Below, in pieces: positions 767 through 49,486 of a stretch of DNA of 60,037 bases (positions are counted from its first letter, which is position 1; each line of letters starts with the position of its first letter). Origin of the DNA: a virus (taxonomy: Duplodnaviria; Caudoviricetes); the IMG/VR virus record IMGVR_UViG_3300030085_002970, positions 1 to 60,037 of that record. One strand, given 5' to 3'. The notes below the pieces were generated by a model, which worked only from the letters and a program-made list of their open reading frames with translations, was not told the DNA's origin and did not search any database. Position numbers and translations under genes: made by a program.

Positions 767-792
767 AAAAGGGGCTTCGGCCCCTTTTTTTT
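767..792. terminator. Bidirectional intrinsic terminator at the convergence of the + and - gene blocks
   Basis: AAAA-GGGGC-TTCG-GCCCC-TTTTTTTT between convergent stop codons. Confidence 0.9.
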
Positions 793-1099
793 ACGATAAA
801 AATATATCTATTTCATCTGAAGATCCAACTGTAGCATACATTCCAAAAGCACTATTTCTAGTAGGTATTTCATTTGTAAGAGCTAAGTAATCAGCATTAG
901 ATATTACTTTTTTATATATAAAAGTAAAAGTGCTAGAAGAGCCTGATAAAGGAGAATTTTGTAAATATAAAGTTATTGTACCAGTTCCAGAACTTTTTAC
1001 ATTTGTAATTTGTATTCTTTTAGGTACAAAAGAAGATCCCGGAGCTACTAACTCTGTAGTAACTGCCGTTGATCCTCTTAAATTTTTATATATAGCCAT
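791..1099 (-). CDS. Hypothetical beta-rich protein, possibly virion-associated
   Basis: 102-aa ORF, last gene of the late arm, TAATG-coupled to the upstream gene. Confidence 0.6.
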   Translation of the reverse strand: MAIYKNLRGSTAVTTELVAPGSSFVPKRIQITNVKSSGTGTITLYLQNSPLSGSSSTFTFIYKKVISNADYLALTNEIPTRNSAFGMYATVGSSDEIDIFLS

Positions 1100-1521
1100 T
1101 AAGCCTCTTCGTAAAACATTACAAATTCTAATACAACCGTATCATCAGTATCAGGTGTAGCTGTAACGTCATCTGCGTCAATACAAGTTAAAGGCATCAT
1201 TAGCCAGTCTCCACCATAAAGCTTACCAATTGGCTCTGATTTAATACCTATTGTAACACCTACAGACTTGTCAATAACACCTCTGTAGCCTATATTTCTA
1301 ATGTATATCTTAGCAGCTACGCTATCTTTAGGTTCTATTAACTCGCTAGCCATTGTTACCAAGTCTACAGCAGATGTTGCTGATAACTTTCTTCTTTGAA
1401 AACCTGTAGTACTATCTATATCTGTAAGAGTTCCAGCTTGCGTAAGAGTCATAGACTCATTAATACCACCAAAACCTGGAGCTATATCTGAAGCTATACT
1501 TATTGTGCATGTTGTCGCCAT
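1099..1521 (-). CDS. MATT-family hypothetical protein, paralog 3
   Basis: Starts MATTCTISIASD; contains KIYIRN and IGKLYGGDW shared with the two upstream genes. Confidence 0.75.
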   Translation of the reverse strand: MATTCTISIASDIAPGFGGINESMTLTQAGTLTDIDSTTGFQRRKLSATSAVDLVTMASELIEPKDSVAAKIYIRNIGYRGVIDKSVGVTIGIKSEPIGKLYGGDWLMMPLTCIDADDVTATPDTDDTVVLEFVMFYEEA

Positions 1522-1546
1522 GTTTATTTATTATTAAAAGTTATTA

Positions 1547-1960
1547 TTAAGATGCTGTTAAAATAGTTCCTTCGTGAAAAAGAGCATATTCTACTATATT
1601 AGTACCACCTGTTGATGTTATTTCTATATCTGCATTAGCATCATGAAAGTCTGCTGGAATAAACATCCAGTCACCACCGTATAATCTACCTACAGCTTGA
1701 GCATCAAGCACTACGCTTATGTAGTAAGTTTCATCTGTAGAGTGATTTTTAACATAAAGCTTAGAAGCTTTACTTGCTGTTGGTGTTGAACAGATAATAT
1801 CATAAGCTGTTCCAGTAGCTATTTCTACTACACCATATTCCATTTGATCTAACCCGTCTGCAGTGGTACCAGCTTTCATGCACGTTGTGCTTGCGCTTAC
1901 CGACATTGCATCCGAAAGAAGATCACTTGTTAGCGTTACCGCTGCCGTCGTTGTTGCCAT
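1547..1960 (-). CDS. MATT-family hypothetical protein, paralog 2
   Basis: MATTTAAVTLTSDLLSD, KLYVKN, VGRLYGGDWMFIP. Confidence 0.75.
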   Translation of the reverse strand: MATTTAAVTLTSDLLSDAMSVSASTTCMKAGTTADGLDQMEYGVVEIATGTAYDIICSTPTASKASKLYVKNHSTDETYYISVVLDAQAVGRLYGGDWMFIPADFHDANADIEITSTGGTNIVEYALFHEGTILTAS

Positions 1961-1987
1961 AATTATTTATTTATTTATTGTTAATTT

Positions 1988-2386
1988 TTATTCGTCTGTA
2001 AATAACATATACTCTAACACCATATCCGCGGCACTAGGTTGTATTTTTATATCGTTAGTGTCAGCGTTGGCTTCCCAAGGAAAAAAACACCAATCACCAG
2101 CATATAATTTACCCATTTGTTCAGAGTTAATCTCTATAGTAAAATATTGTGCTGCTGTTGTTGAGGTGTTTTTCAAGTACACTTTATGAGCACCGTTTGC
2201 ATAAGCGTCTCCATCAAAAAGAATATACTGACTAGTACCACTGGTTTTCTTTCTACCTAAACCTCCTGTTCCAACTAAACCAGTAGAATTACCAGCTCCC
2301 GTAAGTGTCGCTGTTGTTGTTAAAGATAACTCATCAGATAATAAGTCTGTGCTAGCTATTGTTATTGTTGCTGTTGTCGTTGCCAT
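1988..2386 (-). CDS. MATT-family hypothetical protein, paralog 1
   Basis: MATTTATITIASTDLLSD, KVYLKN, MGKLYAGDWCFFP. Confidence 0.75.
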   Translation of the reverse strand: MATTTATITIASTDLLSDELSLTTTATLTGAGNSTGLVGTGGLGRKKTSGTSQYILFDGDAYANGAHKVYLKNTSTTAAQYFTIEINSEQMGKLYAGDWCFFPWEANADTNDIKIQPSAADMVLEYMLFTDE

Positions 2387-2396
2387 ATTTTTTTAT

Positions 2397-2864
2397 TTAA
2401 TCGTAATCTATATATTCAATTGTTACTTCTTCTCCTTGTTCTATCGCTTTTGCAATACTAGGATAAATCCTTTTATAAGCGTTAACACTTTTACCGATAA
2501 ATCCATCTGGTAGAAGTTGGTTGTTTTCTTGCGAGTCACCCACCAATAAACACCCAGCGGTATGCTCGTCAGTATTTCCAGTGTGTATAAGAATAAACTC
2601 AAAGTTAGGAACATCAGTGACATGTAACATACCACGATGTATACCAGGATATTTTTTAGTATATCTTTCATGAAAACCACCTTCTTTTCTTAATTCTATA
2701 TTGTATACACCAGCAGGTACTCTAGTTTCTCCTCTAACTTTCAAAGCTCTACGCTCATCTTCAAGTGTATAACAAAGAAACTTTTTACCCATATCTGTTT
2801 CTTCAAAAAGCAAACCGTGTGTTGAATCTGCTTCTGAACTAAATCTTAATACTTTTAATTTCAT
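2397..2864 (-). CDS. DUF5675-family protein (L,D-transpeptidase-like His/Cys), candidate endolysin
   Basis: CYTLED, RVPAGVY and ILIHTGNTDEHTAGCLLVG motifs. Confidence 0.75.
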   Translation of the reverse strand: MKLKVLRFSSEADSTHGLLFEETDMGKKFLCYTLEDERRALKVRGETRVPAGVYNIELRKEGGFHERYTKKYPGIHRGMLHVTDVPNFEFILIHTGNTDEHTAGCLLVGDSQENNQLLPDGFIGKSVNAYKRIYPSIAKAIEQGEEVTIEYIDYD

Positions 2865-2871
2865 AATTTTT

Positions 2872-3588
2872 TTAATAAGTTCCTGGCGCTGGTATGTTTG
2901 TTACAGTTACACCATTTGCAAAACCAGTTGTATTGCCACCTAGCATTTGGTTTATAAAAGCATATTTTACAGTGCTATAATTAGGCTCAATTGGGCCTCC
3001 ATTAGGACCACCAGTAACATAACCTACATTAAACAAATTACCTTGACCATCAAAAAGTAAAATATCTTGATATATACCTAAATCAGGATCAGGAGTAAAA
3101 GTGTATGTAGCGGAAGTTGTTCCATAATAAACAACTCCAGTTGTAGGTGACGCAGCAGGATTAGGAGGCGCCGCCGCTGCTTGAGCCATAGCCTCTGCTA
3201 AACCACTATAATCTCCTCCCATATACCAAGGTAATCCAGTTTCAGGATCTATATTAGCAGTTTCACTTCTTGCTGTCATTGGTTGTTGGGCTAACTGTCT
3301 TGGTGTTAATTTTGGTATAGCGCTTTGTTGATTTAATCTATAATCTCTTAATATAGAGCTAGATGTAATATATTGTCCTTTATCAAGTATTCTTTTAGGT
3401 AAAAAATGACTAACGCCAGCACCCATAGCTCTTGATATATCTTCATGGTTAATACCACCCATATAACCATTAACACCTTTAATAGTATGATGATGATAAC
3501 CTTTTAGCCCAAACTGAGTAGCAAATATAACAGCCTCCATAGGCGTACTGTAAACTGGTATTCCGCTTATAGAACCTATAACACTCAT
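2872..3588 (-). CDS. Hypothetical protein with a His/Gly-rich N-terminal domain
   Basis: 238-aa ORF; GYHHH..GYMGG motif followed by an Ala/Pro linker and a beta-rich C-terminus. Confidence 0.6.
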   Translation of the reverse strand: MSVIGSISGIPVYSTPMEAVIFATQFGLKGYHHHTIKGVNGYMGGINHEDISRAMGAGVSHFLPKRILDKGQYITSSSILRDYRLNQQSAIPKLTPRQLAQQPMTARSETANIDPETGLPWYMGGDYSGLAEAMAQAAAAPPNPAASPTTGVVYYGTTSATYTFTPDPDLGIYQDILLFDGQGNLFNVGYVTGGPNGGPIEPNYSTVKYAFINQMLGGNTTGFANGVTVTNIPAPGTY

Positions 3589-5969
3589 TGTTTTATTATT
3601 TTTACACTAATTATTGCGTTTTTATATTCAATTATCAAATTATATATACCAGGAGTTATTTTAGATACATTTAAAGAATTAATATCCTTTTTGCTAACAA
3701 CAATATCTCCTAGCAAGTTAACTAATTTAACGTTAACTTTTTTACTTATATATATATAGTCACTTGTAGGGTTAGGATATGTAATTAAACCACTTCTAAG
3801 CTCTAATAAATTTGTAGGTCCAGACCAACCATCTTGACAATATTCATATAAGCTCACACAAGTATTATCCCATTCTACATCACAGCAATATTCGTCAATA
3901 TCTATTACCCAAGCAAAGCAAGGATTAGGAAGAGTATATATATCACCAACAGCGCAACCAGCTGAGTATTCACAGGTCGAGTCAGGTACATTAACAAGCG
4001 GATCGTAGTTAATAGCAGTCGGATCATTACAGCCATAAATAGGATAAATGCAGCTACCATTATCAGTGTTTGCATCATCATCATAGTTAAGTGCGGTGCT
4101 ATCAGTACATCCATAATAATATTCAATACAACTTCCATTATCAGTATTACAAGTATCGCAGTAATTCCACATTGTAGGATCAATACAACCAAAAACTACT
4201 GGCATACAACTACCATCATCTGTATTTGCAGATGAGTTATAATTAAAGGCTACAGGGTCAGTGCAGCCCCAAACAACGGGTATGCACGAGCCGTCGTCTG
4301 TATTCGCTAATATATTATAGTTAAAAGCTGTACTATCAGTACAACCTAATACAACATCAATACAAGAGCCATCGTCAGTATTAGCTAATAAATTATAGTT
4401 AATTGCTAAAACGTCAGTACAGCCATAAATAAAAGGTATACAAGTACCATTATCAGTATTTGCTAAAACATCATAATTATACATTGTTGAGTCTATGCAA
4501 CCATATACGAACGGTATACAGCTACCGTTATCAACATTAGCATTTGCATTATAATTAAACATTGATGCATCTGTACAACCATACACTACAGCTATACAAC
4601 TTGAATCTTCTACATTTGCCAAAGGATTATAGTTAAGCGCTGTAGGGTCTGTACAACCTAAAACAGGTAAAACACAAGAGTTATCATCTGTGTTAGCCAG
4701 TGAATCATAATTTATAGCTATAGGATTAGTACAACCTTCTATTACAGGTATACAACTTCCATCATCAACGTTAGCGTTAGGATTATAATTAAACGCTAAA
4801 GAGTTCATACAGCCTTCAATAACTTCAATGCAAGAGCCTTGTATTTCAACATTAGCGTTAGGATTATAATTTAAAGCAGTAGAATCCATACAGCCAAGCA
4901 CAATTAAAGTGTTACAACTTCCATCGTCAAAATCAGCTGCAGGATTATACTCCAAATATATAGGGTTTGTACAACCCGCTAAGTAGTAACAAGTACTATC
5001 ATCAGTGTTAGCTAAGTAATCGTAGTTTAAAGCAGTTGTATCTGTACAACCATAAACTTTTTCAATACAATTATTACCACAATAAGGTTCTCCTGTTACA
5101 GGGAAAAATGGTGGTATAGGATTTACAAAACCACCTTCAATATCTATAGCTACATAATCTTCAGAATATAAACTATAACCACACTGCACAGCTGTAAAGT
5201 CTGATTGTTGTGTTATTTCAAACACTGCTCTAACAGGATAACCTGCTGCTAAGTTAACAAAGAACGTAGTATCAAAACCATCTATTAAAGTATAAGTTCC
5301 GATGTCTTGATAATTAAACGGTGGTAACAAGCTTGTTGCTTGTGATAGTTTTAAACTAGATCCAGCCCAACCGTTACCAGCTAAATCTGTTAATTCTAAC
5401 TCATGCATACAGCTATCTATATTTATATCTGTATTAGCTGAGTCTAAATAATTATATGCTAGTGAGTCTGTACATCCGTATACTTTTGGTGTAAAACACA
5501 TACCAGTGTCTAGTGTAGCTGCTATATCAAACTCTACATAACTAGGGTCCATACAACCAAATACTGGTGGTGGTGGAGGACAACCTGAAGTATATATTGT
5601 ATCATACATTTGATAACCAAAGTCAGCTATAGGCAACTGCCATATAGTATCACCACATTGTTCTATATATACAGAACCATCATTACCACCCCATAAACTA
5701 CCTGCTACACCATCGCCATAGGCGTCATTAATGACAAAATAAAAACTATCAACAGGCGCACAAGCCGCAGCATATTGTGGTTCGTAATCTATAATACCTG
5801 TATAAGGACCACCTTGCATTAATGTATCACCAAAGAAAGTCATTATATACCAAGAAGTTTCTTCTGGATACTGATCAGGATTTATTGTAACATTTAAACT
5901 CCATGTACCAGGAGGACATTGAGCAAAAGCAATATTAAATAAAAATAGAAATGTAATTAATCTTTTCAT
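3585..5969 (-). CDS. Secreted Cys/Asp-rich repeat protein with a T9SS (Por secretion) type-A C-terminal sorting domain
   Basis: Sec signal MKRLITFLFLFNIAFA|Q; 16 GCxDxxAxNY...DDGSC units; C-terminus YPNPTSD...NLLG...PGIY...KIIKQ. Confidence 0.85.
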   Translation of the reverse strand: MKRLITFLFLFNIAFAQCPPGTWSLNVTINPDQYPEETSWYIMTFFGDTLMQGGPYTGIIDYEPQYAAACAPVDSFYFVINDAYGDGVAGSLWGGNDGSVYIEQCGDTIWQLPIADFGYQMYDTIYTSGCPPPPPVFGCMDPSYVEFDIAATLDTGMCFTPKVYGCTDSLAYNYLDSANTDINIDSCMHELELTDLAGNGWAGSSLKLSQATSLLPPFNYQDIGTYTLIDGFDTTFFVNLAAGYPVRAVFEITQQSDFTAVQCGYSLYSEDYVAIDIEGGFVNPIPPFFPVTGEPYCGNNCIEKVYGCTDTTALNYDYLANTDDSTCYYLAGCTNPIYLEYNPAADFDDGSCNTLIVLGCMDSTALNYNPNANVEIQGSCIEVIEGCMNSLAFNYNPNANVDDGSCIPVIEGCTNPIAINYDSLANTDDNSCVLPVLGCTDPTALNYNPLANVEDSSCIAVVYGCTDASMFNYNANANVDNGSCIPFVYGCIDSTMYNYDVLANTDNGTCIPFIYGCTDVLAINYNLLANTDDGSCIDVVLGCTDSTAFNYNILANTDDGSCIPVVWGCTDPVAFNYNSSANTDDGSCMPVVFGCIDPTMWNYCDTCNTDNGSCIEYYYGCTDSTALNYDDDANTDNGSCIYPIYGCNDPTAINYDPLVNVPDSTCEYSAGCAVGDIYTLPNPCFAWVIDIDEYCCDVEWDNTCVSLYEYCQDGWSGPTNLLELRSGLITYPNPTSDYIYISKKVNVKLVNLLGDIVVSKKDINSLNVSKITPGIYNLIIEYKNAIISVKIIKQ
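3970..5052 (-). repeat. 14 tandem ~26-aa (~78-nt) GCTD..A.NY...ANTDDGSC coding repeats; two more copies lie further toward the N-terminus
   Basis: Counted directly in the translation; boundaries approximate. Confidence 0.85.
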
Positions 5970-6115
5970 TAGTAATCTTTATATTTTCTAATTTCTTTTC
6001 TAGCTTCTTTAGTAAGCTTGCCTTGTTTTTTTAACTCTTTTCTAGCTTTTCTTTTTGCTTTACGCAACTCTTTATTACCAAACAAAGCTAGTGGACTTTT
6101 CATTTTAAATGCCAT
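5969..6115 (-). CDS. Small basic protein, 48 aa, absent from the ORF track
   Basis: Translated by hand: MAFKMKSPLALFGNKELRKAKRKARKELKKQGKLTKEARKEIRKYKDY. Fills the gap and is TAATG-coupled to the next gene. Confidence 0.75.
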   Translation of the reverse strand: MAFKMKSPLALFGNKELRKAKRKARKELKKQGKLTKEARKEIRKYKDY

Positions 6116-6117
6116 AA

Positions 6118-6462
6118 CTAAAACTTACTTATTATTAATTCGTCTATATATTCTTGTATTTCTTCTCTAGTAGCTTGCATTTTAAAACTAAGATCTGCTT
6201 GATAACGTTTTACTTCTTCACCATCATCAAACACAATGATAGTAGGTACGATAGCAATAGAATATTTAGCTTGTACATCTCCATCATCAATGCTTAAACT
6301 TTTTTTATTAGCATCAGATAATTTATTAAACCACTCAACATCATTAGCTGAGTTCCAACCTGCGTTGAAGTGTACTACCTTTACTTGACTGAAAGCTGTA
6401 GCTGCTGTAAACACTAATATCATAATTAGCGCGTACAAATATTTTGCTATACACACTTTCAT
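6118..6462 (-). CDS. Exported thioredoxin-fold protein lacking CxxC
   Basis: Signal peptide ending AFS|Q; VVHFNAGWNSAN in place of FxAxWCGPC; cis-Pro motif IVPTIIVF. Confidence 0.7.
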   Translation of the reverse strand: MKVCIAKYLYALIMILVFTAATAFSQVKVVHFNAGWNSANDVEWFNKLSDANKKSLSIDDGDVQAKYSIAIVPTIIVFDDGEEVKRYQADLSFKMQATREEIQEYIDELIISKF

Positions 6463-6737
6463 TATCTTAACTGATCAATCTTATCTTCTATACGTCTGAT
6501 GTCTTCTTTTATTTCTTTAACATCTTCTTGTGTAGTCATAATAGTTTGTCGCACGTTTTGATCTTTCATATCAAACTCCATACGAGTAATATCAGGTTTA
6601 GGAAGTTCTTTAGCTTCAGATATATCTGCTTGTAACGCAAACCACATACCTATAATTGTAGCCATACCAAAACCTATAGCTATTAATGTCTGTATACTAA
6701 CTTTAAAGCTTGTATTTTCATTTAATTCTTTTGCCAT
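6462..6737 (-). CDS. Single-TM membrane protein with a C-terminal coiled coil (start re-called at MAKELNE)
   Basis: TM segment LIAIGFGMATIIGMWFAL, then heptads VKEIKEDIRRIEDKIDQL. Confidence 0.65.
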   Translation of the reverse strand: MAKELNENTSFKVSIQTLIAIGFGMATIIGMWFALQADISEAKELPKPDITRMEFDMKDQNVRQTIMTTQEDVKEIKEDIRRIEDKIDQLR

Positions 6738-6741
6738 TGTA

Positions 6742-7026
6742 TTATTTTTCACCGCATTTTTTGCTTGGATTACTTACTTGTACCCAGTTTTCTTTTCTAA
6801 ACCAATCACGTAAAGTAGCACCTTTTTTACGAGCACCTTTAACATTGCTTTTACTTGATCTTTTATATTTACCGCCTTTTGCAGCTTTACGTTTAGCGCG
6901 CACGACGCTAGCCCGTTCTGAAGCAGACATGCTACGAACTTTAGCAGCGGGCAGACACACTTTTTTTGTACCTCCGCCCTTTACTTTGCTACGCTTTTTA
7001 AGCGGTGAGATCAATTTAAAAGACAT
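6742..7026 (-). CDS. Small basic protein
   Basis: MSFKLISPLKK start, CLP and LRDWFRKENWV; very K/R-rich. Confidence 0.65.
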   Translation of the reverse strand: MSFKLISPLKKRSKVKGGGTKKVCLPAAKVRSMSASERASVVRAKRKAAKGGKYKRSSKSNVKGARKKGATLRDWFRKENWVQVSNPSKKCGEK

Positions 7027-7030
7027 AGTC

Positions 7031-7306
7031 TTACTTCTTTTTCATTTTCATAGCTGCTTTGCCTTTCATTTTCATAGCTGAAGCTTTTTTCATCTTCATT
7101 GCAGCTTTTTTCATCATCATAGTTGAATCTTTTTTAAGCTTCATAGCTGCTTTCTTCATTTTCATAGCAACACCTTCTTCTTTACCAGCTTTCTCTAAGA
7201 TAGCTTTAGCCATTTTAATAGATCCAGCATTTACTTTTTTCATAGCAGATTTTTTCGCCATTTTCATAGGCGCTTTTTTCGCCATTTTCATTGGTCCCTT
7301 TTTCAT
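7031..7306 (-). CDS. Lys/Met/Ala low-complexity histone-like protein (start re-called at MKKGPMKM)
   Basis: Repeated KKA(A/P)MKM units; the ATG at 7306 lies just after the PAP2 gene stop. Confidence 0.7.
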   Translation of the reverse strand: MKKGPMKMAKKAPMKMAKKSAMKKVNAGSIKMAKAILEKAGKEEGVAMKMKKAAMKLKKDSTMMMKKAAMKMKKASAMKMKGKAAMKMKKK

Positions 7307-7307
7307 T

Positions 7308-7850
7308 TTAAATTTTGTTTTTAATGTGGTTATACATTTCTTTACCAAGGTTTTCGCCCATTTTACTATCAGACTTATAGTGCGCATGAGCGACATTGCG
7401 ACTATAAGATATATTTTTTGCAGCTTTAGCAAAAGCTGATTTTGCTTTAGGATGTTTATCACCTAACACTTTAGCTATTAAAACTCCTTGTGTCGAATGA
7501 CCTGAGGGATATGAAGGTGTTTTCATGGAATCCATTTCAATATCATCCATTTTTATATTTAATTTTTTTGCCATTGATTTTGGCCTTGGTCTATTAAAGT
7601 GTTTTTTTAAATCGAGTATTATAGGTGCAGATTTTTTTATTAAATTTGCAACTAGTTTAGGATCGTAATCTTCAATATTTTTCTTTTTAGCAACTTTTTT
7701 AAAAACCGCTTCTATATCATCGTTTTCTTTGACAAACTTTCTACTCATTGGTATTTTAGTAAGCTCTTTAACTTCTTGCATAGTAGTAAAAGAACTATTA
7801 CTTGGTGGTTTTTTCTTTTTAAAAGAAGATATGTTAAAATCTTTAAACAT
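7308..7850 (-). CDS. PAP2 / haloperoxidase-superfamily phosphatase
   Basis: All three motifs present: KKHFNRPRP, PSYPSGH, SRNVAHAHYKSD. Confidence 0.8.
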   Translation of the reverse strand: MFKDFNISSFKKKKPPSNSSFTTMQEVKELTKIPMSRKFVKENDDIEAVFKKVAKKKNIEDYDPKLVANLIKKSAPIILDLKKHFNRPRPKSMAKKLNIKMDDIEMDSMKTPSYPSGHSTQGVLIAKVLGDKHPKAKSAFAKAAKNISYSRNVAHAHYKSDSKMGENLGKEMYNHIKNKI

Positions 7851-8301
7851 TTTTTCTTTGAGCTTTTAATCTTTTTTTAGCAGCTTTAGCTAGCCTTGCT
7901 TGTTCCATTTTACCCATAACCTCAGCTCTTTGCTCTAATACTGTTAGTATTTGTATTTTACGAGCATAAGGTTTATTTATTTTCATTACTTTAGCTATTG
8001 TTTTTCTAGCATCAGCAACAGTAGCAAACTTAATGCTTACTGTATCTTTTGGATTTTCATCAGTATACAACCTTCTATCAGAACCTTTTGGTTTTTTACC
8101 TGTACCAACTTTAGGATCTGCTTTCTTTTTTTTAGGTGAAGGTCTATTTGTTTGCATATTTATAAACCAGTTACATAGTTGTTTATCTCTTGGTGTAGCT
8201 CCAGGTCTAGCTTTTAATTTTTTACATTTATCTATAGTTACATCACCACCATAGATCTTAGCTATTCTAGCTTTCAATACGCCTCTATACGCCTTACTCA
8301 T
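7843..8301 (-). CDS. Basic hypothetical protein
   Basis: 152 aa, K-rich; GTGKKPKGSDRRLYTDENPKDTV. Confidence 0.65.
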   Translation of the reverse strand: MSKAYRGVLKARIAKIYGGDVTIDKCKKLKARPGATPRDKQLCNWFINMQTNRPSPKKKKADPKVGTGKKPKGSDRRLYTDENPKDTVSIKFATVADARKTIAKVMKINKPYARKIQILTVLEQRAEVMGKMEQARLAKAAKKRLKAQRKNV

Positions 8302-8644
8302 TGCCTTTTTTACCTAATCTTTTTCTAACAATGTTCATTGTAGTTTTCATTTTAGCCGCATAGCTAGGATTTTTTTTACGGTTAAAAACTACTTGCTGGT
8401 TTAAACTACTGATAATTCTAGATAAATTACCTTTACGAGATTTAATAAGCCAACTAGCTAAACCTGAAGGTGACAAGCTTTTAAACTTACCTTTTGCATC
8501 AGGAGCATCAGACTCTTTAAACTCACCCATGCGTTTTTTATTAGGCGAAACTTTAACGCAGCTTCCTTTGCTAAAGCGAGTTGTTCCAGGTTTTCTTTTA
8601 TAACCTTTCCAACACTTTAATGGGCTTTTCATTTTAAACGCCAT
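8294..8644 (-). CDS. Basic hypothetical protein
   Basis: Starts MAFKMKSPLKCWKGY..GSCVK. Confidence 0.65.
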   Translation of the reverse strand: MAFKMKSPLKCWKGYKRKPGTTRFSKGSCVKVSPNKKRMGEFKESDAPDAKGKFKSLSPSGLASWLIKSRKGNLSRIISSLNQQVVFNRKKNPSYAAKMKTTMNIVRKRLGKKGNE

Positions 8645-8811
8645 TATTTTTTCTTTTTACTTTTACCCATTTTACCTGGTCCACCAGCTCTAGTACATCT
8701 TACACCCCAACCTGAAGCATAAGCACTAGGCCAAACCTTAAACTTACGTTTTGCTGCTGTTTTACAAGCTGCAGAAATTTTTTTTAATGCTGAACTTTTT
8801 TGTACTTTCAT
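8644..8811 (-). CDS. Small basic protein, 55 aa, absent from the ORF track
   Basis: Translated by hand: MKVQKSSALKKISAACKTAAKRKFKVWPSAYASGWGVRCTRAGGPGKMGKSKKKK; TAATG-coupled. Confidence 0.7.
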   Translation of the reverse strand: MKVQKSSALKKISAACKTAAKRKFKVWPSAYASGWGVRCTRAGGPGKMGKSKKKK

Positions 8812-8815
8812 AATA

Positions 8816-9196
8816 TTAACATTTCCATCTGCGTCTAGCAGCTAAACCTCGTTTACTTTTCCAACTTCTTGATCTAGCGCAGAACGATTTTCTTCTTTTT
8901 GCGTCTTTACTTCCTGGTTTAACTTTTCCTGTTACAGCAGTTTTAAGTTTACTTCCAGGGTTTTTACGTCTATATTCTCTAACTCCCTTAGAAGTCATCC
9001 CAGCACCCTCTTTGATAGTTCTAAAGTTACGACCTTTACCTTTAGTAGTTTTTCTTGGTTCGTTAGTCTTTTTACGCTTACGTTTTTGCATAGGTGAATC
9101 TTCATCTGATAATTTAAAACCAGACAGTATTCCGCCAGCTCTTCTTCTACCACAAGAAGTTACAGGTATTGGATGATTTTTTTGCGTATAAGCCAT
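8816..9196 (-). CDS. Basic protein, DUF6321-like
   Basis: GMTSKGV..YRRKNPGSKLK..RRKSFCARS..RRRWKC. Confidence 0.6.
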   Translation of the reverse strand: MAYTQKNHPIPVTSCGRRRAGGILSGFKLSDEDSPMQKRKRKKTNEPRKTTKGKGRNFRTIKEGAGMTSKGVREYRRKNPGSKLKTAVTGKVKPGSKDAKRRKSFCARSRSWKSKRGLAARRRWKC

Positions 9197-9198
9197 GA

Positions 9199-10242
9199 TT
9201 AAAAGATTACATAATTAACACCACACTTAAAGTCATACCACTCGCGATTCCAGTACTTGTTGTATTTACCTTCAACAAATAAACCTAAGTGTTTATTAAA
9301 CTTGTATCCAAGTATTAATCCGCCAGAATAGTCATACCATTGACCATCTATAAAATTATGATAAGAATACTCTCCTCCACTATCGTAATGGTACGGCATG
9401 AAATTACCCCACGAGTGCAACCAAAAATCTTTTTTATAATGATAATAATCAAAACCTAAAACTACTGAGTATTGAAACTGATTATCTAATTCATTACGTT
9501 TTTTATTTACGTAATCTTCTAATATTTGAGGTATAATAACTTCTTCCCAAACAGCACTACTTGTAGCAACTACGTCGCCTGCTGGGTTTTTATATTCATT
9601 TTCAAATACATCTATACTATAACCTTCTTGTATTGCTAGTTGTGTATAATGTATATAGTCGTTTTCTAGCTTCCACTCTGTTAGCGGGTCAAAGCCATAA
9701 GGCTCTGCAAGTCTTGTAACACCGCCAAAATTAAAAGATAATTTCTTTTTACCACGTAATCTAAATCTCTGTGTAGCTTCGTAATACTCTATATCTGCAA
9801 AACCGTCTTTAACATACTCTACTTTAGTAAGCCATTTATTTCTTACATATCTTACGAAATGTTGTTGATCAAAGTACTCTACGCCTTCTTGTCGTTTATA
9901 GTCTACTTCAAATAAATATTCAAACGGTGATAAACCAACTGTAGCAGCATCGCCATAAGCAGATTCAGTACCATCTTTGAAAGGAGTACTACCTTCGTAT
10001 TGAAAACGTTTTATTTTACGTATACCCATTGTTAACGAATAATCGTATGGCGTAAATACAGTATCGTAACTTAGCACACCTTGGCTTGTAGAGTATACAT
10101 CTCTATCAGCTAAAGATGTTCCACCATTTGCCGCTATGTAAAACGTAGAAAACTTAAACGCTTTTTTAATTTGTGAGCAACACTCTTTAGGAGCTGTACA
10201 CGCTGTTATGAACGCTATTAATATTATTATTATTTTTTTCAT
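9199..10242 (-). CDS. Predicted outer-membrane beta-barrel / lipoprotein
   Basis: Signal with lipobox-like ITAC; aromatic-rich alternating strands; ends GVNYVIF (terminal Phe, BAM-like signal). Confidence 0.6.
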   Translation of the reverse strand: MKKIIIILIAFITACTAPKECCSQIKKAFKFSTFYIAANGGTSLADRDVYSTSQGVLSYDTVFTPYDYSLTMGIRKIKRFQYEGSTPFKDGTESAYGDAATVGLSPFEYLFEVDYKRQEGVEYFDQQHFVRYVRNKWLTKVEYVKDGFADIEYYEATQRFRLRGKKKLSFNFGGVTRLAEPYGFDPLTEWKLENDYIHYTQLAIQEGYSIDVFENEYKNPAGDVVATSSAVWEEVIIPQILEDYVNKKRNELDNQFQYSVVLGFDYYHYKKDFWLHSWGNFMPYHYDSGGEYSYHNFIDGQWYDYSGGLILGYKFNKHLGLFVEGKYNKYWNREWYDFKCGVNYVIF

Positions 10243-42946: not shown

Positions 42947-43224
42947 TACTTTGATCTGCCTTCCGCGAAACCTTTAAATACTCTTTCTTCTTTTTCTTCA
43001 GGTGTCTTTCCTTCCAAAATATTTTCTTCTTCTTGTACGCGGTTGAGTATTTCAAATGCATCAAATATAGCTAGCTTTTTAGTAGCCGCAGCATTTTTTA
43101 GTCGATCAGCAGATACATCATCTTCAGTGTTAGTGATAATTTGTTCTTCCGCAACTTTAATCAACTCATCAACCGCTTTTCGCCCAGCTAGGATTATACG
43201 CTTCTTCGTTTCCTTGATACTCAT
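42946..43224 (-). CDS. Putative terminase small subunit
   Basis: Small helical protein TAATG-coupled to terL; call is positional. Confidence 0.45.
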   Translation of the reverse strand: MSIKETKKRIILAGRKAVDELIKVAEEQIITNTEDDVSADRLKNAAATKKLAIFDAFEILNRVQEEENILEGKTPEEKEERVFKGFAEGRSK

Positions 43225-43759
43225 ATTTAATTGTAATAAATTTATTCATAACCCTATAAAGCCTTGTATCATTAATAATAAACTCATAGGTTGAAAATGG
43301 TGTAAAGCCTACTAGCTCTTCTTTTTTATAAACTCCGTCAGTATATTTAACTATACCAATACAGCCTTCTTCTTCTCCTACAGCTAGCTTGTTTCTTTGT
43401 TTTATAGGTTGTACAAAACAATAACCACTACAAGCTTTCCACTCATCTTTTGACTTATATAGATATATTTGATCTTCTTTAACTAAATACGTATTTTCAT
43501 TAAAAAAAGATCTACTATTTTTTTCTTTACCTTTTACATCGTGCCACCTTCTAAAAACATTGTGATGAACAATAACTTCATCATTTTTGCTTATACAAGT
43601 TTCAAATGCTGTTGGTGTAGACTTAACAATAGCGTGACGATTTATGAACTCGTGATTAAATATCTCTGTATTTAATATTAGTTCTTTATCACCAACTTTT
43701 TTACTATTATTATATCTACTACCTTTTGGTTCTATAACAAAATCAAAAGGCGCCTTCAT
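43169..43759 (-). CDS. Divergent GroES-like (possibly tandem-domain) protein
   Basis: MKAPFDFVIEP..AIVKSTP..DEVIVHHNVF, then a second unit CFVQPI..GIVKY..ELVGF. Confidence 0.45.
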   Translation of the reverse strand: MKAPFDFVIEPKGSRYNNSKKVGDKELILNTEIFNHEFINRHAIVKSTPTAFETCISKNDEVIVHHNVFRRWHDVKGKEKNSRSFFNENTYLVKEDQIYLYKSKDEWKACSGYCFVQPIKQRNKLAVGEEEGCIGIVKYTDGVYKKEELVGFTPFSTYEFIINDTRLYRVMNKFITIKYEYQGNEEAYNPSWAKSG

Positions 43760-45642: not shown

Positions 45643-46065
45643 TTATTTTTCTTTTGATTGTTCGTTTTTCTTTGAGCTTCCACCGAAGAAGAAGTCTATA
45701 ATTGTATTTACTTTAGCGCTCATAGCACCAAATATCGTTGATATAAAGCTGATTTCAAATTCACCTAGCTCTAAGCTTTTAGTAACAAAATACTTAAACA
45801 TTACAAACGTAATACCAAAGTATGCTACAGTAAATAAAGTTGCTAATACTTTTTGAATAATAGCATCGTCTTTATACATATCGCGTGCAGACTTTCTGTC
45901 CTCTACTTCTTTAGCAAAAGCTTCACGCTCTGCTTCTAGTAATACAGATTTTAAAGCAAGTTTAGCTTCATCTCTCTCTTTGTCAGTTGTAATAACTTTA
46001 TCGAGAATACCTTCTGCATTTTCTACGACCTTACCAAAAAGGCCACCTATTAAGTTGTTTATCAT
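45643..46065 (-). CDS. Holin-like membrane protein (GTA 3TM-holin type)
   Basis: ILDKVITTDKERDEAK..DRKSAR, two hydrophobic helices, FFFGGSS. Confidence 0.6.
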   Translation of the reverse strand: MINNLIGGLFGKVVENAEGILDKVITTDKERDEAKLALKSVLLEAEREAFAKEVEDRKSARDMYKDDAIIQKVLATLFTVAYFGITFVMFKYFVTKSLELGEFEISFISTIFGAMSAKVNTIIDFFFGGSSKKNEQSKEK

Positions 46066-47679: not shown

Positions 47680-47937
47680 TTAATCAATTAATACGACGTC
47701 CATTTGTTTTATAACGCCGTAAAATTTATCGTTATGCTGAACGCCGTGCCCAGCGTGTCTATCATAATAGACTATATCTTTTTCTTTTATACCTTCTACA
47801 AGGTTTCCTACTGATATAACCTTAGCTTTTAAATATCTATTGTCTTCGTTTATATCGTCTGTAAGAACTAATCCACCAACCTTTTTGTGATCTTGCTTTA
47901 TAGGCTCAATCACTATGTAATGATTAACTGCCTTCAT
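47680..47937 (-). CDS. groES: Co-chaperonin GroES (Cpn10)
   Basis: KKVGGLVL mobile loop, AKVISVG, adjacent to groEL. Confidence 0.82.
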   Translation of the reverse strand: MKAVNHYIVIEPIKQDHKKVGGLVLTDDINEDNRYLKAKVISVGNLVEGIKEKDIVYYDRHAGHGVQHNDKFYGVIKQMDVVLID

Positions 47938-49486
47938 TTATTCTAATGTTTGAAATTACACAGTCTGCGGATATAATAGTAGTTACAACTGAAACAGCGT
48001 TTTTAAGTGCAGTCTTAGTTACAAGCACTGGGTCTATGATGCCTGCTTCAACCATATTAACCGGTTTGCCATTAACTACGTTTAAGCCACAGCCTTCTTC
48101 TAAGTTAGCATCAAAGTCGATACCAGCATTATTTATTATAGTGCTAAAAGGTGATTGTATTGCTTTAAGCAGTATCTCTTCACCGACATTGTCGGTCGAA
48201 ATTTTTTGAGAAGCATTTAGCAACGCTACACCACCACCAGGTACAATACCTTCTTTTAAAGCAGCTTTAGTAGCATATATAGCGTCTTCAACACGATCTT
48301 GCTTTTCTTTTAGTTCTACTTTAGAGTTAGCACCTACTTTAACAATACCAACGCAGCCAGATAACATAGTTAATCTATCTTGTAGCTTTCTTTTAATAAA
48401 AGGATTTTGCTCTTCAGCTATACGTTTATTAACTTCATCAATACGATCTTCAACTAACTCATGCATATCTTCTACAGTAACAACAGTACTTGTTTCACTA
48501 GTTTCAGCATATTCAACTTGTCCAAGATCTTCAGGCTTCATAGCATCAAGATCATCTCCAAGCTCTTCGTTAAATAGTGTAGCACCTGTCAATATAGCTA
48601 AATCTTCACATGTATCTTTTTTAGTAGGACCAAAGCCGGGTAAGTCAATAATATTTACTTTAATATTACCTTTCACTTTGTTCATTAGAAGCGCCGACTT
48701 TACTTGCTGTGATACTGGAGCTACTATAAGTAAAGCTCGGTTTTGTTTAATGACATGTTCTAGTATACTTTGTATCTTACGTATATTAGGTATTTCAGAC
48801 ATACATATTAATACATAAGGATTTTCAAGCTCTACCTTCTGTTTATCAGTATTTGTTACAAAATGAGGTGATGTAAAACCACAGTCCATTTGTACACCGT
48901 CTACAACCTCTATATAAGTTTCATCAGTTTCAGAGCCTTCCATTAGTACTACGCCATCTTTACCTACAGCTTCGTAAGCTTCTGATATAATTTTACCAAG
49001 AGCTTCATCGTTATTACAGCTAATAGCTGACACGTTTTTAAGCATGTCACCTTCAACATCTATTTTAATAGTATCTAAATACTCATTTACTTTTTGTAAA
49101 CAAGAGTATATACCTTCTTTAATCTCTCTTACAGAGTGATCTTTTAGATTATTATAAATACTTTTAATTAATGCTTGTGCTAAGACTGTAGCTGTTGTAG
49201 TACCATCACCTGCTTCACGAACAGTATTGCGAGCAGCTTCTTTTAATAAAGTAGCACCCATATTTTCAACCGGATCAAATAAGACTACGCTCTCTGCAAC
49301 GGTTACACCGTCTTTTGTAATGACCGGTTTGCCCCTGCTGTCTTCGTAGATAACACATTTTCCTGAGGCTCCAAGGGTAGACTTAACAGCTCGGGCGAGC
49401 TTATCTACTCCCATGATGATTTTTTCTTTAGCTTCATCGCCAAAGTTAAGATCTTTGACAATTTCGCTAGGTAAATTGTATTCCAT
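47924..49486 (-). CDS. groEL: Chaperonin GroEL (Cpn60)
   Basis: [40 protein letters not shown]; no GGM tail. Confidence 0.95.

Follow-up and report, generated by a model that had tools for sequence, protein, structure and literature searches.

Three co-oriented genes of an uncultured marine podophage, which encode an outer-membrane beta-barrel protein, an inner-membrane coiled-coil protein and an exported thioredoxin-fold protein without a CxxC motif, form with high confidence a real, conserved and phage-only unit, and we see about an even chance that this unit acts at the outer-membrane step of host lysis, where it would replace a missing spanin. The genome, IMG/VR record IMGVR_UViG_3300030085_002970, is complete (100% completeness rating) and was analysed over its whole length of 60,037 bp, referred to here as the window; the three genes, referred to as the trio, lie on the minus strand at 9199-10242, 6462-6737 and 6118-6462, respectively. 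A first-pass annotation of this DNA had drawn them into a multi-gene envelope module together with a type IX secretion system (T9SS) cargo protein, a PAP2 phosphatase and a DUF5675 protein. All six open reading frames (ORFs) are present and co-oriented on the minus strand of one block, and the module held for the trio; it did not hold for the cargo, which is lineage-specific, for the PAP2 protein, which belongs to an inserted cassette, or for the DUF5675 protein, which is a separate, cytoplasmic endolysin candidate.

Linkage of the three genes across phage lineages

Stretches of viral contigs that encode a relative of the barrel numbered 438 for the lineage of the window and 96 and 130 for two other lineages; a scan of the collection with P0167 returned no viral locus. 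Neighbourhoods were taken for four clades: clade 1, the window's own lineage (80 loci); clade 2, P0133-like (80 loci, barrel 31-36% identical); clade 3, P0194-like (80 loci, barrel approximately 25% identical); and clade 4, P0135-like (2 loci). A locus was treated as informative if each flank of the barrel gene extended for at least 4.5 kb (n=106), and partner genes were detected with hidden Markov models built from the loci. Both partners were present in 102 of the 106 informative loci (clade 1, 45/45; clade 2, 42/46; clade 3, 14/14; clade 4, 1/1); that is, the three genes do not occur independently of one another but are linked across four barrel lineages, over which barrel identity to the window's copy falls as low as 24-36%. 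In 198 of 207 loci, no more than 60 nt lay between the coiled-coil gene and the thioredoxin-like gene, and 3-8 nt separate the barrel stop from the coiled-coil start in most relatives. The barrel gene precedes the pair in clades 1 and 2, whereas the pair precedes the barrel gene in clades 3 and 4 and in 10 loci of clade 1; because gene order differs between lineages, the linkage has survived rearrangement. All atlas clusters of the family are viral, and marine metagenomes from 12 studies contain the trio.

These counts bear on the possibility that the three are unrelated exported accessory genes, found together merely because insertions are tolerated where the late operon ends. The terminase relatives of this phage (Elemovirus, MW202828.1) do end that operon at a giant virion protein, without the whole block, and a 2.46-kb cassette has been inserted here. 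However, the occurrence of all three genes in nearly every informative locus, from four lineages and in three gene orders, and with start and stop codons that overlap or nearly touch, leaves this explanation close to refuted, and we hold it to be extremely improbable.

The outer-membrane barrel

The barrel protein (9199-10242) is 347 residues long, with a lipobox (..ITAC), a C-terminal phenylalanine and approximately 14 strands; its start codon lies 1 nt past the stop codon of the gene for a 2437-residue virion protein. An AF2 model built from a 28-sequence alignment (predicted local distance difference test, pLDDT, 77.8; predicted TM-score, pTM, 0.72) contains 14 strands, and residues 180-254, a variable segment of 75 residues, form a helical insert. 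The best Foldseek matches of the model were all outer-membrane barrels, at TM-scores of merely 0.25-0.36, and an independent structure alignment (VIA-wide) gave EstA as the best match (Z 11.5, root-mean-square deviation [rmsd] 6.0, 187 residues aligned); the 17 rows at Z of at least 9 were all outer-membrane barrels (autotransporter barrels, CymA, OmpG, Omp33, LpxR, KdgM, OMPLA and Tsx). Model and structural matches thus agree with the earlier proposal that 9199-10242 folds as a membrane barrel, and as modelled the protein is a generic outer-membrane barrel of 12-14 strands without a specific family. It belongs to no Pfam, PHROG or NCBIfam family, and none of the 28 members of the alignment gave a Pfam match at E<=1.

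A large protein collection contained 3376 homologues of the barrel at E<=1e-3, and an exhaustive search recovered full-length relatives down to 25% identity; ten distant homologues that were looked up all lay on metagenome contigs of at most 45 kb. The last residue was aromatic (F or Y) in 199 of 206 unique homologues. The lipobox is less widespread, being present in 23 of 73 clade-1 loci and in 0 of 134 others. The most conserved residues (G73, R75, K76, F80, G91 and E93) fall in the loop 73-98 that follows strand 4, a low-confidence part of the model; by the usual strand parity this loop would face the periplasm, and the variable insert would be an outward loop.

The distribution of conserved and variable segments is relevant to superinfection exclusion or receptor masking, in which the barrel, either by itself or together with the other two proteins and the T9SS cargo, would alter the surface of the infected cell such that other phages or progeny fail to adsorb. 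A preprint on huge phages describes 1,603 phage-encoded outer-membrane barrels and suggests receptor interference, citing the binding of Lom to LamB (10.64898/2026.10.24.761521); here, the large outward loop varies in length and the surface cargo gene lies beside the trio in 71/80 loci of clade 1. Genes for exclusion are usually lineage-specific add-ons, however, whereas the trio persists to approximately 25% identity, and the part of the barrel that is most conserved is the loop predicted to be periplasmic, not one at the surface. An obligatory inner-membrane and periplasmic partner would also be unexpected for a receptor mask, and in clades 2 and 4 the trio adjoins endolysin and holin genes. 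We therefore consider exclusion unlikely, if still worth keeping in view.

The thioredoxin-like and coiled-coil partners

The thioredoxin-like protein (6118-6462; 114 residues) begins with a signal peptide of the signal peptidase I type, which ends in ..AFS and is followed by Q, and carries WNSAN in place of the WCGPC of thioredoxin. The copy in the window is below the threshold of the Pfam Thioredoxin family (E 0.0098), whereas a profile of 22 homologues matched solved thioredoxins (2vim_A at E 1.5e-7), and a homologue from clade 2 (L121) passed the Pfam cut-off (E 2.2e-9, 37.7 vs 23.5 bits). CxxC was found in 0 of 180 unique homologues, such that the description of this gene product as a redox-dead exported thioredoxin was borne out. 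Residues N33, N37, N40, P73 and T74 are invariant, and the family retains without variation an NxxN motif at the equivalent of the active site as well as the cis-Pro loop; because both are invariant, we read the protein as a putative peptide-binding adaptor, perhaps for loop 73-98 of the barrel or for the C-terminus of the coiled-coil protein. On the basis of the barrel model and these conserved positions, loop 73-98, the active-site-equivalent residues and the cis-Pro loop are plausible contact sites. The last residue of the thioredoxin-like protein was also considered as a mimic of the sorting signal of outer-membrane proteins and was rejected, since F is last in just 69 of 180 homologues.

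The coiled-coil protein (6462-6737; 91 residues from the ATG) consists of an N-terminal tail of approximately 16 residues, a single predicted transmembrane helix, a Pro-rich linker and a charged helical C-terminal domain of approximately 55-59 residues with 3-4 heptad spacing, consistent with the inner-membrane location and coiled coil previously assigned to it. Counts of lysine plus arginine favoured an N-in/C-out orientation in 118 of 162 unique homologues (35 ties, 9 opposite), and we infer a small type II membrane protein whose C-terminal domain is predicted to face the periplasm. Its stop codon overlaps the start codon of the thioredoxin-like gene by 1 nt (TAATG).

Lysis genes beside the trio

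In related phages the trio is located among lysis genes. A gene for an M15 peptidase was found within 600 nt of the trio in 28/28 loci of clades 2 and 4, and a holin gene in 26/32. The order in clade 2 is barrel, secreted protein, often a peptide with two transmembrane helices, coiled-coil protein, thioredoxin-like protein, M15 peptidase (Pfam 3e-18) and holin-like protein; in clade 4 (L246, L247) it is coiled-coil protein, thioredoxin-like protein, barrel, M15 peptidase and holin, contiguous and without gaps. None of the upstream ORFs of L247 matched the virion proteins of the window.

Three further small genes were noted in or near these cassettes. The peptide with two transmembrane helices (L157:7559-7792 and relatives; 60-77 residues) is inside the trio cassette in 44/80 clade-2 loci and may be a second holin or an antiholin. 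A very basic protein of 44-46 residues that ends in ..(K/R)GQG(R/K) (L246:4559-4696, L247:8854-8994, L088:5595-5729 and L002:4799-4936) recurs beside lysis genes in phages of clades 4 and 2, and likewise in pelagiphage HTVC028P, as gp25. Several clade-2 cassettes carry an inserted gene that resembles those for staphylococcal nucleases (Pfam SNase E 8.8e-11; L088:8610-8984, L110:8016-8369 and L089:7802-8215).

The holin found next to the trio in clades 2 and 4 has a homologue in the window. This holin candidate (45643-46065, minus strand; 140 residues) matched L133:8675-9058 by BLASTP at E 3e-7, and the latter scores 25.1 vs 24.8 bits on PF11351 (GTA_holin_3TM); the window protein itself gave a weak PHROG holin match (E 7.7e-4). 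No M15 peptidase is encoded in the window. Its likely endolysin is instead the DUF5675 protein (2397-2864, minus strand; 155 residues, no signal peptide; Pfam E 4.4e-26, 91.4 vs 26.7 bits), which the first-pass annotation had placed in the same block and which is predicted to be a cysteine peptidase of the YkuD (L,D-transpeptidase) fold. Neither Foldseek alone (E<=0.001) nor phmmer against the PDB gave a match; upon a second look with VIA, the 15 best rows for the AF2 model (pLDDT 80.1) were all YkuD-fold peptidoglycan enzymes, and the next row was at Z 2.0. The model aligned with Pgp2 at Z 8.3 (rmsd 3.1, 112 residues aligned), with DpaA at 7.6, Csd6 at 7.5, mycobacterial L,D-transpeptidases at 7.1-7.5 and Tlde1a at 6.2. 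Thus DUF5675 resembles the YkuD-fold L,D-peptidases (Campylobacter jejuni Pgp2, Helicobacter pylori Csd6, Escherichia coli DpaA, Salmonella Tlde1a) in fold, at Z 8.3-6.1 over the whole 155-residue model, and in an invariant His and Cys 11 residues apart (H94 and C105, in 20 sequences); it differs from them in having no sequence match to any solved chain. Across 160 loci plus the window, 32 had M15 alone, 73 had DUF5675 alone and 0 had both. Since DUF5675 never occurs with M15, has a predicted YkuD fold with invariant His94 and Cys105, and is listed as a C82-like lysin candidate in a 2026 preprint (10.64898/2026.04.11.717860), it is likely the endolysin of this phage, acting as a cytoplasmic candidate separate from the trio.

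Proximity to lysis genes would also suit a role in lysis timing, with the membrane protein and its periplasmic partner as a holin/antiholin pair, comparable to T and RI of T4, and the barrel as an outer-membrane sensor or anchor. That clades 2 and 4 have the trio next to genes for a holin and an endolysin fits this idea, as do the single transmembrane helix and the small exported partner encoded by a gene that overlaps by 1 nt. On the other hand, the genome already has a separate holin homologue, the coiled-coil protein matched no holin family in Pfam, PHROG or NCBIfam, and nothing known accounts for an outer-membrane barrel in such a circuit, which together make timing control quite improbable.

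A proposed role at the outer membrane

A lipobox scan of all six frames of the window found the barrel as the sole lipobox protein; therefore the window has no canonical o-spanin or unimolecular spanin, in keeping with the first-pass observation that a canonical spanin pair was not to be recognised elsewhere in it. A hydropathy scan of the window ORFs singled out only five plausible genes as encoding a strongly hydrophobic stretch, and three of these are in this block. The first-pass annotation had offered two readings, a spanin-like lysis apparatus or a remodelling of the host surface. The fold of the barrel, the linkage of the trio, the adjacency of M15 and holin genes in two lineages and the lack of any other lipoprotein favour the former, as a role for the trio and not for the composite module as it had been drawn.

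We propose that the trio links the two membranes and acts at the last step of lysis in place of a spanin. In this scheme the holin (45643-46065) would open the inner membrane, the YkuD-fold DUF5675 enzyme (2397-2864) would cut the peptidoglycan, and the trio, its three proteins presumably in contact with one another, would destabilise or open the outer membrane.

Several observations weigh against this proposal. In the window's own clade, lysis genes are seldom within 600 nt of the trio (M15 in 0/7 loci, holin in 0/26, DUF5675 in 6/42), and the holin candidate of the window is 35 kb distant from it. The lipoprotein character of o-spanins is not conserved: a lipid anchor, whether from the barrel or from a small lipoprotein, is absent in 181 of 207 loci, and a small lipoprotein was flagged within the cassette in 3/207, of which only that of L088 looks convincing. 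The periplasmic part of the coiled-coil protein, at just 55-59 residues or so, is short for bridging the periplasm. A secreted Cys-rich protein accompanies the barrel in clades 1 and 2, which would be just as compatible with a role in secretion. Neither partner was found in four clade-2 loci with flanks of 6 kb, which retain the barrel gene and the secreted-protein gene next to it; there, the pair may be located farther out. Lastly, no GenBank phage record matched the barrel or the thioredoxin-like protein, and the trio has no cultured carrier phage.

The rule that the barrel or a small lipoprotein always supplies a lipid anchor was considered and rejected on the same count of loci with neither. 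The small lipoproteins themselves (L088:6778-6963 and L110:7053-7214, in a few clade-2 phages) are Pro-rich, 53-61 residues long, have a lipobox (..AGC or ..TGC) and are encoded directly after the barrel; they resemble a classical o-spanin and might pair with the coiled-coil protein there.

The T9SS cargo and other secreted neighbours

The cargo gene (3585-5969, minus strand) encodes 794 residues with a signal peptide, read by eye from the translation, that ends in ..AFA before Q, 47 cysteines and a C-terminal sorting domain. The tail (residues 731-794) passed both curated type A cut-offs (PF18962, E 2e-7, 31.6 vs 27 bits; TIGR04183, 27 vs 23 bits), which upholds the predicted export of a surface-bound T9SS cargo from this gene. 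The protein contains 14 repeat copies, the last 12 at a spacing of 26-27 residues. By tblastn it is common in clade 1 and present in just 5/80 clade-2 loci, and from this sequence survey it is a lineage-specific neighbour of the trio and probably a variable surface protein in its own right. The gene directly after the barrel gene in 75/80 clade-2 loci encodes an unrelated secreted protein, Cys-rich and with a sub-threshold LDLa motif and acidic repeats; the T9SS-like tail that this protein appeared by eye to have was unsupported by Pfam, NCBIfam or BLASTP against the tail of the window's cargo. Neither protein is found with the trio in clades 3 and 4.

These neighbours raise the possibility that the trio is an export helper for Cys-rich secreted proteins, in which the dead thioredoxin holds disulfide-rich cargo and the barrel serves as outer-membrane partner or anchor, in the manner of PorV or PorP/SprF. 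The Cys-rich composition and T9SS tail of the window's cargo, the LDLa-like secreted protein that follows the barrel in clade 2, and the clade-1 loci of variant gene order, in which the genes for cargo and barrel are neighbours, are all consistent with such a function. Clades 3 and 4, however, retain the trio without such cargo between or beside the three genes, and the clade-2 protein has no T9SS tail by either family collection. Moreover, 0 of 28 barrel sequences matched the PorP/SprF or PorV families in Pfam, and the structural alignment of the barrel with PorV (6h3i_F; Z 8.0, rmsd 6.5, 190 residues aligned) ranks below those with generic barrels, which reach Z 9-11.5. An export role is thus, in our estimation, improbable.

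Two smaller genes flank the cargo gene, both on the minus strand. The first, between the cargo gene and DUF5675 (2872-3588), encodes a 238-residue protein with no match in Pfam, PHROG or NCBIfam and is present in 14/80 clade-1 loci. The second, between the thioredoxin-like and cargo genes (5969-6115), encodes a small basic protein of 48 residues, below the 50-residue limit of the ORF list; it fills an apparent gap of 148 nt (5969-6118), and its stop codon overlaps the cargo start.

The inserted basic-protein and PAP2 cassette

Between the barrel and coiled-coil genes of the window lies a cassette of seven genes (6738-9198, minus strand), outside the trio, which encodes six small, very basic proteins (8816-9196, 8644-8811, 8294-8644, 7843-8301, 7031-7306 and 6742-7026) and the PAP2 protein; the isoelectric points of the seven are 10.0-11.7, and those of the six small ones 10.6-11.7. 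In contigs of three runs (two DNA runs, each of a different study, and one RNA library), position 6737 is followed immediately by 9199, with exactly 2461 bases missing; the cassette is therefore an insertion polymorphism that splits the barrel gene from the coiled-coil gene here. Fewer than half of the loci carry it, and its location varies among them.

The PAP2-superfamily phosphatase homologue (7308-7850, minus strand; 180 residues) passed its Pfam cut-off narrowly (E 8.8e-7, 29.2 vs 27.2 bits), and the motifs ..RPRP, PSGHS and SRxxxxxHxxxD are legible in its translation; it was found in 12/80 clade-1 loci. As it has neither signal peptide nor transmembrane helix, nothing places it in the envelope. 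Lacking an export signal and located inside a basic-protein cassette unrelated to the exported genes, it was dropped from the envelope module to which it had been assigned.

The product of 8816-9196 matched DUF6321 (E 9.6e-11). Matches to pelagiphage DNA fall on this gene (8818-9055) and on 7909-8129; 8816-9196 and 7843-8301 have 70-75% DNA identity to hypothetical genes of Pelagibacter and Methylophilales phages (19 records), a conservation unusually high for phages whose hosts span different phyla. The DUF6321 homologue of pelagiphage HTVC028P, gp22, is encoded a few genes from the M15 peptidase of that phage. Neither gp21 nor gp22 of HTVC028P aligned with the thioredoxin-like or coiled-coil proteins, and gp24 did so weakly (E 0.066). 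The products of 8294-8644, 6742-7026 and 5969-6115 have near-identical first nine residues (M-A/S-F-K-M/L-K/I-S-P-L), which could reflect paralogy or a shared N-terminal signal. The 91-residue product of 7031-7306 is made up largely of M-K-M-K-K-type repeats (35% lysine plus arginine); for the 143-residue GTG ORF listed there, the probable start is the ATG at 7306, which follows the PAP2 stop codon by 1 nt.

Genome organisation and host

Almost all genes from approximately 51 kb down to 791 are on the minus strand and packed into a late operon, which runs from GroEL through the holin candidate, large terminase, portal, capsid proteins and two giant virion proteins (3364 and 2437 residues) to the block studied here, within which start and stop codons overlap or almost touch throughout. 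GroEL (47924-49486; PHROG E 5.6e-136) and a GroES-like protein (43169-43759) are encoded as in related Elemovirus phages. The late operon of the terminase relatives (Elemovirus, MW202828.1) ends at the giant virion protein, with the entire block absent, and therefore the block 791-10242 is extra in this phage; in those relatives the M15 endolysin gene is located upstream of the terminase gene. In MW202828.1, the closest GenBank relative and one without the trio, a 207-residue protein with an N-terminal signal-anchor and a strand-rich C-terminus is encoded between the holin-like gene and the M15 endolysin gene (L001:35390-36013), and may be the outer-membrane lysis factor of that phage.

The terminase matched 87 GenBank phage records, of which the best was an uncultured podovirus (63%); 86 of the records belong to phages of Flavobacterium (68), Cellulophaga (15), Tenacibaculum (2) and Maribacter (1). 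The residue that follows the predicted signal cleavage site is glutamine, nearly invariably in the thioredoxin-like family and visibly in the barrel and the cargo as well, which fits the Q-rule of Bacteroidetes (PMC5837995). The terminase relatives infect Flavobacteriaceae, and together with the T9SS tail and the glutamine after the cleavage site they point to a host among the Bacteroidota. The bins of metagenome-assembled genomes (MAGs) that contain trio-bearing contigs (Sphingobacteriales, Parvibaculum, Rickettsiales) were mutually inconsistent and were not used for host assignment; a terminase of this type was absent from the Rickettsiales MAG, whose trio locus looks like phage DNA.

Scans for regulatory sites were uninformative, both for sigma-70 promoters (49 sites vs 44.9 expected, with a consensus unsuited to Bacteroidota) and for terminator-like sites (8 vs 5.0 expected). 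One metatranscriptome library has contigs 90-99% like parts of the region; expression was not inferred from them, as DNA can occur in such libraries and the contigs carry no expression levels, and the bins without RNA cover (2921-3706 and 9995-10242) likewise carry no meaning.

Two other features lie at the end of the late operon. A 63-residue ORF on the plus strand (571-762), convergent with the end of the operon, matched the chlamydial histone H1-like Hc1 family (Pfam E 1.8e-20). Three tandem paralogues of approximately 130-140 residues, with acidic, Thr/Ala-rich N-termini, occupy 1099-2386 (1988-2386, 1547-1960 and 1099-1521); the family is present in 44 of 81 clustered sources (80 clade-1 loci and the window), usually just after DUF5675.

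Comparison with known systems

How Bacteroidota phages pass the outer membrane at lysis is largely unknown. Unimolecular spanins were the only spanin type in the Bacteroidetes phages of the data set of a 2025 ISME J survey (PMC12596118), and just two, both unimolecular, are annotated for North Sea flavophages (PMC8776804); the 2018 census of Kongari et al. covered 677 phages that infect Gram-negative hosts and found no spanin in 91 of them (PMC6139136). Within the one literature library that was searched, no description of the trio was found among papers on DUF5675, on spanins of Flavobacterium and Bacteroidetes phages and on phage-encoded outer-membrane proteins. The trio is abundant, phage-only and located among lysis genes in related phages. 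Should it open the outer membrane, it would represent a new lysis mechanism and a new use of the thioredoxin fold, and would help to recognise lysis cassettes in marine phages that have not been cultured; the assignment of DUF5675 as a probable endolysin class is a separate result.

The cargo of this phage has a counterpart in 'Cryophage' (Bellas et al. 2020, PMC7468147): there too, a phage encodes a protein that combines a Sec signal peptide with a type A sorting domain for the T9SS and that varies among relatives. The protein described here differs in being a repeat protein rich in Cys, in lacking any recognised enzyme domain and in being encoded beside the trio. The barrel, for its part, resembles the phage-encoded outer-membrane barrels already described (lambda Lom, the outer-membrane proteins [OMPs] of huge phages, PF24653 Phage_OMP) in being a Sec-exported barrel that a phage encodes for the outer membrane of its host. 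It differs from them in having no Pfam match at the threshold given above, in its 14 strands and large insert, and in its fixed inner-membrane and periplasmic partners. The word 'spanin' does not appear in the preprint on huge-phage OMPs (10.64898/2026.10.24.761521).

The closest functional parallels would be the spanins. Like the two-component spanins (lambda Rz/Rz1), as PMC6139136 describes them, the trio includes an inner-membrane protein of N-in/C-out orientation with a helical coiled-coil periplasmic domain (both predicted here), a partner gene that overlaps or directly adjoins, and an outer-membrane component; it also lies beside endolysin and holin genes in several lineages, in a genome with no other spanin. 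Unlike them, it has a soluble thioredoxin fold at the position of the o-spanin in place of a small Pro-rich lipoprotein, its outer-membrane part is a 14-strand barrel of approximately 350 residues whose lipid anchor is not conserved, it has three parts and not two, and no sequence similarity to spanins was found. Because the coiled-coil protein has no cysteine (0/162 homologues), the disulfide-linked dimers described for spanins cannot form. With the unimolecular spanin (T1 gp11) the trio shares its presumed task at the outer membrane during lysis, whereas no single protein of the window has both a lipobox and a C-terminal transmembrane helix, and the barrel ends in a beta-strand. We tentatively suggest, at somewhat less than an even chance, that the trio is a third kind of outer-membrane-disrupting lysis machine, beside the two-component and unimolecular spanins: a three-part bridge, anchored by a barrel and not by a lipid, that would be used by a large share of ocean Bacteroidota phages and would move between unrelated phages with their endolysin and holin genes.

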